From Planctomycetota bacterium (lineage in GTDB: Bacteria > Planctomycetota > J058), in the NCBI GenBank assembly GCA_023954375.1, contig JAMLIC010000006.1, positions 146,972 through 210,971 on the forward strand: 64,000 nt of DNA. The letters run 5' to 3'. A program made the position numbers and the translations under genes. Within the stretch, counting starts at the first letter, position 1; each line of letters begins with the position of its first letter. This document shows positions 32,341 through 33,360 of this stretch, piece by piece. The notes under the pieces were generated by a model that searched no databases, was not told the DNA's origin, and was given only the letters and a program-made list of their open reading frames with translations.

Positions 32341-32508
32341 TGGAGCGGGGGCGGGAGCGGGAGCGGGAGCGGGAGCGGGGACGGGAGCGGGAGCGGGGGC
32401 GGGGGCGGGAGCGGGAGCGGGAGCGGGGGCGGGAGCGGGGGCGGGTTCGGCCTCGGCTTCGGCCTCGGCTTCGGCCTCGGTCTCGGCCTCGGCTTCGGCT
32501 TGCGCGGG
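32341..32508. repeat. composite microsatellite: ~17 x GGGAGC/GGGGGC hexamers then ~11 x GGCYTC hexamers
   Basis: Direct reading of sequence; G3-N3 periodicity gives repeated G-quadruplex-capable motifs on the plus strand. Confidence 0.9.
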
Positions 32509-32697
32509 CCTCGCGGCGTTGGGCGTCCTCGCGGGGCGTGAGAGCGCGAGAACGCCGCGAGGCCCGCGCCGGGGCGCCTTGTGAAGGAGCGCGCGCGCCG
32601 GCCCCTGCTCCCGGCACGGGCCTCGCCGCTGCGCCTCGGCAGGAGCAGCCCCGTGGCCTCCGCCCGGGACCTCTGCAACCTGCGAAAGGAGACCTCG

Positions 32698-33024
32698 ATG
32701 CCGTTCCTCGCCGAGACCAACGCCTTGACCCTCCTGACCCTCCTGCGCGAGCCGCTGAAGCGGCTCCAGGCCCACGACCCGAAGCTCGCCGACGAGGCGC
32801 GGCGAGCCGGCAGGTCGATCGCGCTGAACGCGGCCGAGGGCCGCGGGCGACGAGGCCGAGACCGGACCCACCACTTCGCCGTGGCCTACGCCAGCGGGCG
32901 AGAGCTCCGCATGGCCCTGGCGATCGCCGAGGCGGAAGGGCTCCTCGACCGCGGGGAGCTCGGCGAGGTGCGGCAGGTGCTCGACCGGCAGCTCGCCCTG
33001 CTGTGGGGCCTCCAGCGCCGCTGA
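32698..33024 (+). CDS. four-helix-bundle protein (TIGR02436 / 23S rRNA intervening-sequence protein family)
   Basis: MPFLAETNALTLLTLLREPLKRLQAHDPKLADEARRAGRSIALNAAEGRGRRGRDRTHHFAVAYASGRELRMALAIAEAEGL; strong RBS AAGGAG 8 nt upstream of ATG; start trimmed from track ORF 32581. Confidence 0.8.
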   Translation: MPFLAETNALTLLTLLREPLKRLQAHDPKLADEARRAGRSIALNAAEGRGRRGRDRTHHFAVAYASGRELRMALAIAEAEGLLDRGELGEVRQVLDRQLALLWGLQRR

Positions 33025-33077
33025 CGCGGCGCCTCGCCGGGCCCGCGCCCGCGGCGGGCCCGGCGGCGCCGTGTGCG

Positions 33078-33360
33078 CGGGGGCGGAGCGGGAGCGGGAG
33101 CGGGAGCGGGAGCGGGAGCGGGAGCGGGAGCGGGAGCGGGAGCGGGGGCGGGAGCGGGAGCGGGAGCGGGAGCGGGAGCGGGAGCGGGAGCGGGAGCGGG
33201 AGCGGGAGCGGGCCGCGGCTTCGGCCTCGGCCTCGGCCTCGGCTCCGGCCTCGGCCTCGGCCTCGGCCTCGGCCTCGGCTTCGGCTTCGGCTTCGGCTTC
33301 GGCCTCGGCCTCGGCTCCGGCCTCGGCTTCGGCCTCGGCCTCGGCCTCGGCCTCGGCCTG
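33078..33360. repeat. composite microsatellite: ~22 x GGGAGC hexamers then ~24 x GGCYTC hexamers (second copy, same orientation as 32341..32508)
   Basis: Direct reading; gives ERERER/GAGAGA/GSGSGS runs in the six-frame artefacts. Confidence 0.9.

Follow-up and report, generated by a model that had tools for sequence, protein, structure and literature searches.

Positions 32341-33360 of the window (the whole stretch of DNA analyzed here, 64,000 nucleotides of a Planctomycetota contig) hold a short gene for a four-helix-bundle (4HB) protein between two long arrays of hexamers. We conclude, with a probability of roughly 0.55, that this segment is one copy of a dispersed, multi-copy 4HB cassette of the intervening sequence (IVS) type, located outside rRNA and provided with hyper-expanded arms that are paired in RNA and processed. 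The first half of this conclusion taken alone, namely that the arrays belong to an IVS-type 4HB cassette, is held with high confidence. The cassette is probably selfish and bounded by its arrays, and these are probably not random microsatellites. The protein family of the gene, PF05635, is named for open reading frames (ORFs) in IVSs of 23S rRNA, whose enclosing stem is cut by RNase III.

The two flanks of the gene are composites of the same two unit types in the same order. Tandem Repeats Finder (TRF), pattern searches and unit counts define the following elements, with the limit that exact copy numbers of pure repeats of 130-280 bp may be unreliable on a contig that, like this one, comes from a metagenome-assembled genome (MAG):

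32341-32442, plus strand: A1, upstream distal array, 17 hexamers with consensus GGGAGC, 10 perfect and five GGGGGC (TRF, pattern search, unit count)
32443-32502, plus strand: B1, upstream proximal array, 10 hexamers, GGCCTC/GGCTTC (TRF, pattern search, unit count)
32698-33024, plus strand: gene for a 4HB protein of 108 aa, PF05635/TIGR02436, with the Avd / S23p / Xcc0516 fold
33078-33209, plus strand: A2, downstream proximal array, 22 hexamers, 19 of them perfect GGGAGC (TRF, pattern search, unit count)
33211-33360, plus strand: B2, downstream distal array, 25 hexamers, among them 15 GGCCTC and six GGCTTC, also GGCTCC (TRF, pattern search, unit count)

TRF reported tracts at 32336-32445 (period 6, 18.3 copies, 88% matches), 32442-32499 (period 6/12, 8.8 hexamers), 33077-33212 (period 6, 22.8 copies, 96% matches) and 33211-33359 (period 6, 24.8 copies, 89% matches). 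The composite flanks measure 164 bp upstream and 283 bp downstream, and a direct alignment between them gave 87% identity across 192 bp, in agreement with an earlier note on this DNA that had described two same-orientation composite hexamer arrays around the gene. The ORF lies 199 nt from the upstream arrays, with a leader of 196 nt, and 53 nt from the downstream ones, and no array lies inside it. With three-unit patterns and up to two mismatches, the two array types matched 34 and 33 times, whereas shuffled sequence would lead one to expect 0.17 and 0.27 matches. The same search found neither type elsewhere in the window, aside from two single, weak GGCYTC-like matches at 18673 and 40981. The earlier note had reasoned that generic microsatellites would be scattered at unrelated loci; in the 64 kb, the arrays are confined to the flanks of the 4HB gene.

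Profile searches and structure prediction place the protein firmly in its family. It scores 37.7 bits against PF05635 and 41.5 against TIGR02436, above the curated cut-offs of 33.8 and 24, and a profile of its relatives matches PDB 2GSC (Xcc0516) with E = 5.8e-15. The AlphaFold2 model of the monomer has a mean predicted local distance difference test score of 97.1 and helices at residues 4-26, 28-49, 53-79 and 86-107. Foldseek gave template modeling (TM) scores of 0.83-0.87 between this model and 2GSC and 2RLD (BT_0352), each of which has five chains in the PDB, and 0.82-0.83 (root-mean-square deviation ~2 Å, model against structure) to Avd of diversity-generating retroelements (DGRs). In an alignment of 39 sequences, S40, N44, E47 and G48 are invariant and R36 is nearly so, and the window sequence reads RRAGRSIALNAAEG. 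The alignment also shows that the window protein contains the conserved PF05635 motif GxxRxxxSxxxNxxE (PMC3936711). The PF05635-type family is very large, with more than 7,800 proteins among 8,000 candidates scored in one search. To our knowledge, apart from Avd in DGRs, its members have neither a known function nor a known mode of spread. The window protein matched no defence-system or phage protein family, and tblastn with it against plasmids found no match.

Related loci were picked by gene and not by repeats, which gave 24 independent loci (labeled L002, L022 and so on below) with 28-51% protein identity to the window. Nine are from species-representative genomes, eight of which are MAGs, of Acidobacteriota, Proteobacteria, Kofleriaceae, Polyangiaceae and a delta-proteobacterium; twelve are JGI metagenome contigs, and ENA assemblies supplied three more, of which one was sampled seven times. 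These loci demonstrated the association of gene and arrays: of 32 arrays measuring 48 bp or more, 25 are no farther than 600 bp from a 4HB gene, a zone that holds 17.5% of the bases (P = 1e-13), and every one of the 19 arrays with period 6 or 7 lies within 460 bp. Most of the loci have long arrays of hexamers, or sometimes heptamers, beside the gene. The units differ by lineage, and include (AGCGGT)16, (AGCGGC)19+(AACCGG)10, (GCGGTG)74, (TCGGCA)53, (CGGCAC)26, (CGGAGA)20, (CCGTGT)6-12 and (GCGGTG)18+(TCCGCA)17. Many short metagenome contigs stop in or beside an array, and it is because of the arrays that 4HB genes are found on very short contigs in short-read assemblies. A coding constraint behind period 6 was considered and rejected: several units read as stop codons in one frame, units of 7 and 8 nt also exist, and the window arrays are outside the neighboring ORFs. 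The earlier note had also described the GGGAGC tract as a run of G-quadruplex motifs, and as a pattern in the sequence this is accurate, with 17 and 22 G3 runs of the (G3N3)n type in A1 and A2 and 46 of the window's 77 plus-strand canonical motif starts inside the arrays. This potential is real at that level but specific to the GGGAGC lineage unit, and probably incidental; a conserved quadruplex function is unlikely because the units of other lineages have no G3 runs.

The genes around the related cassettes vary by locus (EamA and a DEAD helicase; a hybrid kinase and a 5'-nucleotidase; a P-type ATPase), and no neighbor gene is conserved across loci. Since the neighbors are unrelated from locus to locus, a self-contained module inserted in unrelated spacers is favored. 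No reverse transcriptase (RT) gene is present among the called genes of the related loci, and no RT, integrase or transposase gene among the 13 Pfam-scanned genes within 10 kb of the window cassette. L022 and L030 stand in different contexts and have only the leader hairpin and the ORF in common (409 nt, 86%), while their arrays differ, so array turnover outpaces that of the gene. Array length is polymorphic even within a locus, as the earlier note had proposed checking in reads: at the locus sampled in seven metagenomes, one sample (L026) has four extra upstream hexamers, 10 units versus 6, whereas the 333-nt gene is identical in all seven (L026 20-203 against L022 4790-5000; about six substitutions, mostly in the leader hairpin). 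The CGGAGA unit forms the upstream array in L010 (223-345) and the downstream array in L014 (1224-1271), a 70%-identical cassette from another metagenome.

Distant family members carry the same arrangement in short form. Eight distant loci were collected, comprising six plasmid members found by tblastn of an Xcc0516 fragment against annotated plasmids, together with Xanthomonas and Lysobacter; members of the Xcc0516 clade are 22-25% identical to the window protein. In Xanthomonas and Lysobacter, the 4HB gene sits tight between accB and accC with (CGGGAAT)x4.4 upstream and (CCCATTC)x4.3 downstream. In Anabaena sp. 90, it lies between cas6 and cas4, with (TGACAGG/GAACAGG) units spanning 300 bp upstream and (CTGTCAC)x4.3 downstream. 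The arms are (GGGTGTG)x3.9 and (ACACCCT)x4.9 in Nostoc punctiforme, (AGGGTGT)x4.3 and (CTACACC)x4.3 in Calothrix, (GAGGACG)x3.9 and (GTCTTCT)x4.1 in Azospirillum, and octamers, (GAGGGCAG) and (CTCCTGCC), in Gemmatirosa; Nostoc PCC 7120 has heptamers on both sides that are non-complementary. Across the eight loci, 17 of the 26 arrays built of 6-8-nt units are located in the 6% of sequence that adjoins the gene ends (P = 4e-15). The arms of these distant members are short (~30 nt) and reverse-complementary, as in the pairs CGGGAAT/CCCATTC, GGGTGTG/ACACCCT, GTGACAG/CTGTCAC, GAGGACG/GTCTTCT and GAGGGCAG/CTCCTGCC. Complementarity is kept while the units change between genera, which is compensatory change at the scale of the whole arm. 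On pANA02 of Anabaena sp. 90 (L038), a third (CTGTCAC)x4.3 array stands just after cas4 (3078-3107), so that cas4 is bracketed by the same heptamer as the 4HB cassette next to it.

Taking all loci together, tandem arrays of 6-8-nt units are present at the ends of 4HB genes in ~30 independent loci that span Myxococcota, Acidobacteriota, Proteobacteria, Gemmatimonadota, cyanobacteria, Xanthomonadaceae and soil metagenomes. The best explanation of the window arms appears to be that they are a local, hyper-expanded form of the short complementary tandem arms found family-wide. That they could instead be generic slippage-prone microsatellites or an assembly artifact, flanking the gene by accident, draws on the MAG source and on the unreliable sizing of pure repeats beyond short-read length. 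This explanation is very improbable and already largely refuted by the ~30 independent loci, among them Nanopore-based MAGs as well as complete plasmids and Xanthomonas genomes, by the enrichment (P ~1e-13 to 4e-15), and by the absence of arrays of this kind from the rest of the 64 kb.

The gene is multi-copy in its source genome. Started at an upstream GTG, the window ORF encodes a protein identical to MCO5166511.1 from a Planctomycetota MAG, and the 90% cluster of this protein has four further members from the same MAG, on four other contigs (MCO5169690.1, MCO5165940.1, MCO5169959.1 and MCO5170110.1). Because these five same-MAG proteins on five contigs fall in one cluster, the source MAG holds at least five recently diverged copies that are >90% identical. 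Cassette limits were observed in a Polyangiaceae MAG assembled with Nanopore reads, where homology among three paralogous loci starts and stops at the outer arrays; since these loci are alike solely from one outer array to the other, the repeated unit is delimited by the arrays. Together with the absence of such arrays from the rest of the window and the ~30 related loci, the multi-copy gene upholds the earlier note's proposal that the arrays mark cassette boundaries. Convergent pairs of diverged 4HB paralogs are frequent (L002, L003, L004, L005, L006, L010, L012, L018 and L029; for example, 2500-2841 on the plus strand and 3034-3372 on the minus strand of L006). Arrays stand outside these pairs, and in Polyangiaceae between the two genes as well, while the window has a single gene. 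Second 4HB copies are truncated or frameshifted in L005, L009, L012, L020 and L029.

Several of these observations would also suit a recombination, excision or copy-number cassette, in which the direct arrays of 160-280 bp are substrates for homologous recombination or slippage, and the gene is deleted, duplicated, moved, or integrated as a circle via an array. The directly repeated flanks (87% identical over 192 bp), the multi-copy gene, the arrays as limits of the Polyangiaceae repeated unit, the clusters of whole and decayed copies side by side, and the array-length polymorphism at a related locus all agree with it. However, no solo array without a 4HB gene and no unoccupied target array was found in ~260 kb (including ~200 kb of related sequence), the arms of distant members are inverted and at ~30 nt poor for homologous recombination, and L022 and L030 share leader and ORF but not arrays. 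We consider recombination handles unlikely as the explanation of the arrays, and the idea is compatible with the IVS-type reading. As to the earlier note's suggestion of an excision, copy-number or phase-variable locus, array length varies at the related locus (6 versus 10 units), but no deleted or duplicated segment and no solo array was found in the sequence examined. A sigma-70-like promoter could not be placed for the 4HB gene, and changes by whole hexamers would not shift the reading frame.

Complementarity is the property by which the window arms may be compared with the inverted arms of distant members. GGGAGC pairs with GGCUUC at 5/6 positions (G-C, C-G, a G.G mismatch, G-C, G.U and A-U) and with GGCCUC at 4/6. 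Because the two unit types are partly complementary, the direct composite arrays are also imperfect inverted repeats (A1:B2 and B1:A2). The best ungapped duplex between the window flanks is 130 nt long, imperfect, and in need of G.U pairs. It scores 33 (sense strand) and 15 (antisense strand) when G.U is allowed, and 12.5 when pairing is restricted to Watson-Crick. Ungapped scoring was used in place of RNAduplex energies of cognate versus cross-locus 330-nt flanks, which proved uninformative, as any GC-rich pair forms a full-length duplex. The predicted RNA fold of 32330-33365 contains 137 arm-to-arm pairs that close a loop with leader and ORF, in both the minimum free energy (MFE) and the centroid structures. 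When whole cassettes from 12 loci in seven phyla-level groups were folded, 10 had an MFE structure closed by long-range pairing of the two arms, with stems of 28-137 pairs.

In the mechanism that we propose for the IVS-type cassette, a transcript crossing it would pair B1 with A2 and A1 with B2 into a long imperfect stem, as modeled, and loop out the leader and the ORF. By analogy with ORF-bearing IVSs of 23S rRNA, this stem may be cut by RNase III. In this way the cassette would be insulated or excised in RNA, and its presence in operons, rRNA and narrow spacers would be tolerated. A stem of tandem units could pair in any register. The arms would grow, shrink and change unit by replication slippage, as mismatch repair (MutS) deals poorly with loops of 6-7 nt, and arm expansion would follow from the escape of 6-8-nt loops from this repair. 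Direct arrays would also permit loss or duplication through recombination.

A number of points weigh against this reading. Complementarity between the window arms is imperfect: every unit contains a G.G mismatch, units of the GGCCTC type add further ones, and the Watson-Crick-only score of 12.5 is no better than that of shuffled controls. The fold of the arrays alone has z = -2.4, GC-rich sequence folds readily, and the 1-kb fold stands without a shuffle control. Co-transcriptional folding would favor local A1:B1 and A2:B2 hairpins, which are a realistic alternative to the long stem. Arrays are one-sided or non-complementary in L005, L014, L020, L030 and L039. A sense-strand G.U bias, which as a sign of RNA-level function is clear in the window, is inconsistent across loci and was rejected as such a sign; pairing could therefore matter at the DNA level instead. 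Arm pairing and RNase III processing are placed at the RNA level by modeling and by analogy, and an empty site was not recovered among the loci examined. Lastly, the further copies in the source MAG are known as proteins, and arrays are known for the window copy alone.

If pairing does matter in DNA, the cassette might be a foldback-type transposable element, comparable to Drosophila FB, whose arms are terminal inverted repeats for a transposase encoded elsewhere. Complementary arms of tandem units, dispersed copies in unrelated sites (including conserved operons), nested and decayed copies, and the lack of an overall strand bias for G.U would all be expected of such an element. We give it little credence, as there is no transposase in or near any cassette, and the integrase and insertion sequence genes beside three plasmid copies are non-conserved partners. 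A target-site duplication was not identified, although none was sought beyond the arrays themselves, and the window arms pair well only with G.U, which is relevant to RNA and not to DNA.

The fold of the protein raises another alternative, that the arrays are periodic binding sites for the encoded, oligomeric 4HB protein, for autoregulation or for packaging of its own RNA or DNA, in the manner of TRAP on spaced triplets or Avd on DGR RNA stem-loops. The fold equals that of the pentameric Avd, Xcc0516 and BT_0352, and the RNA bound by Avd is structured and encoded alongside the avd gene (bioRxiv 10.1101/2023.10.23.563531). Gene and array co-occur strictly and the unit changes with lineage, as for a co-evolving protein and site, and most GC-rich units keep one CGG or CCG triplet, as read from consensus units with no statistic. 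But one gene can be flanked by at least two unrelated unit types, CpG-free units exist (GTCCCT, ACAGAG), unit length ranges from 6 to 8, and binding alone does not explain the complementarity of the arms. A conserved CGG core was rejected as a binding motif, since it is missing in CCGTGT, TCCGCA, GTCCCT, ACAGAG and the cyanobacterial heptamers. As the sole explanation, binding sites seem quite unlikely; as with recombination handles, they are compatible with the IVS-type reading.

Between the arrays and the gene, and on either side of the cassette, the following further features were identified:

30294-32297, minus strand: left neighbor, a lipoprotein with a C92 (YiiX-like) permuted papain domain; start codon 43 nt from A1; outside the cassette
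32502-32569, plus strand: leader hairpin with 19-nt arms, 32502-32520 and 32551-32569, 100% complementary (repeat search, RNA fold)
32686-32691, plus strand: Shine-Dalgarno sequence AAGGAG, 6 nt 5' of the ATG; unsequestered in the predicted fold (z -0.29, 32570-32703)
33035-33065, plus strand: 3' hairpin directly after the stop codon, GC-rich, with 12-nt perfect arms CGCCGGGCCCGC / GCGGGCCCGGCG (repeat search)
33372-33596, minus strand: right neighbor, YacG (DNA gyrase inhibitor); stop codon 11 nt from B2; outside the cassette

The 3' arm of the leader hairpin (32551-32569) has an alternative partner at 32610-32629 (20 nt, 90%), so that a two-state structure of the leader (32502-32629) is possible. 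A longer, imperfect pairing of the 3' hairpin extends into the start of A2. Leaders of related cassettes (L010 346-458, L014 745-858, L011 60-181, L022 4880-5006 and L030 4870-5006) form very stable predicted hairpins, with z -3.2 to -7.4, in which the entire Shine-Dalgarno sequence is paired with an upstream anti-Shine-Dalgarno sequence, while that of the window is free. Because this sequence is fully paired in the related leaders, the predicted folds suggest that translation of the 4HB ORF is normally blocked in those cassettes.

The spacer between the start codon of the lipoprotein gene (32297) and the stop codon of yacG (33372) is 1.07 kb, and nearly all of it is cassette, placed between two housekeeping genes that are unrelated to each other. 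The surroundings are ordinary chromosome according to a Pfam scan of the 13 predicted genes between ~23.5 and 41.1 kb, which include CCA/poly(A) polymerase, an ABC ATPase, Dus, PilZ, a zinc dehydrogenase, UPF0047 and histidine kinases. No Rfam match was found in 31800-33900 at E up to 1, and the window cassette is not in a 23S rRNA gene. An 87-bp unit is repeated 2.7 times at 46865-47100 (TRF score 346), near a stretch of 85% G+C (44001-46000), both within a very long ORF (43774-49656) that is rich in G+C at third codon positions. Dense, imperfect GCG/GGC-rich repeats with periods of 3, 18, 25 and 32 occupy 29439-29630, in the C-terminal half of an ORF with an N-terminal PilZ domain, and are probably its low-complexity Pro/Ala/Arg-rich tail.

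On a broader scale, we tentatively propose, as an idea whose odds are below even and rather long, that PF05635 4HB genes with complementary tandem arms form one widespread class of selfish 'panhandle' cassettes, which would unite rRNA IVSs, many tracts of cyanobacterial short tandemly repeated repetitive (STRR) sequences, and operon insertions (accB-accC, cas). In the strongest form of this idea, the Avd-like protein may bind the stem of its own arms, recruit a polymerase or nuclease, create or maintain the repeats, and so propagate the cassette; the window may then be a runaway case, with hundreds of bp of hexamers and at least five fresh copies per genome. If arms define 4HB genes, then IVSs, operon insertions and cyanobacterial heptamers are one testable phenomenon, such cassettes could be found by a sequence-independent signature, and the expanded arrays of GC-rich soil bacteria are material on how long microsatellites are made and tolerated. 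Mutually complementary tandem arms around a 4HB family in many phyla may outweigh the window find in interest. No account of flanking tandem repeats as a general 4HB property, or of long hexamer arrays around these genes, was found in the literature searched apart from the heptamers of Coxiella, and an earlier one may exist.

Among known systems, Drosophila foldback (FB) transposons have long terminal arms of short tandem units in variable number, which fold back and sometimes loop out an ORF. They differ from the window cassette in being eukaryotic DNA transposons with a known transposase; no homology between the two was seen, and the window gives no sign of DNA-level transposition. Avd of DGRs (PDB 4DWL and 8UBE; a pentameric barrel) has the same 4HB fold, its gene lies between two repeats, and it binds structured RNA encoded beside that gene (bioRxiv 10.1101/2023.10.23.563531). 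The cassette could be a DGR remnant or variant, with an Avd-like gene between variable and template repeats or with arrays that arose from an RT slipping on a short template: its repeat-avd-repeat layout resembles VR-avd-TR, and the upstream array departs from the purer downstream one mostly at a single A (GGGAGC to GGGGGC). This is extremely improbable. No RT was found among genes scanned within 10 kb or in related loci, there is no target gene with a variable repeat, sequence identity to Avd is <10%, the arrays are intergenic, outside any ORF and unequal in length (164 versus 283 bp), and the arms of relatives are inverted. The substitutions are ordinary transitions, A/G and, also in the second unit type, C/T, and DGR-like adenine mutagenesis between the arrays was rejected.

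STRR sequences of heterocystous cyanobacteria are described as a genome-wide repeat class of unknown function. Their heptamers are intergenic and hairpin-capable, and such arrays flank 4HB genes on plasmids of Anabaena, Nostoc and Calothrix, whereas the window has hexamers in a Planctomycetota genome. PF05635 members have been noticed inside cas operons before (PMC3936711). The Xcc0516-type gene between accB and accC offers the closest solved structure (2GSC, TM 0.83) and is likewise bracketed by complementary tandem repeats, but its ~30-nt heptameric arms are strictly inverted and Watson-Crick paired, and it is a single copy at one conserved operon position, apparently inherited vertically.

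The 23S rRNA IVSs of Coxiella burnetii and Leptospira, with their S23p ORFs, are in the same family, PF05635. The window cassette differs from them in its location, between a lipoprotein gene and yacG and not in rRNA (helix 25 or 45), in its hexamer arms of 160-280 bp that are two-unit direct composites of imperfect complementarity, and in carrying a strong Shine-Dalgarno sequence of its own along with a long structured leader. IVSs are regarded as selfish insertions without an obvious mobility gene, and the window cassette also has none nearby. Complementary ends enclose the ORF in IVSs, and in prediction, imperfectly, in the window as well. In C. burnetii, the S23p ORF is immediately preceded by two to three tandem GACAGAT heptamers, whose number depends on the strain, and RNase III makes its 5' cut at the first of them (PMC4990558), which makes the link to mobile intervening sequences drawn in the earlier note an apt one. 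Variable-number tandem repeats thus abut the ORF in both the IVS and the window type of cassette, with the variation of the latter seen between the related L026 and L022.

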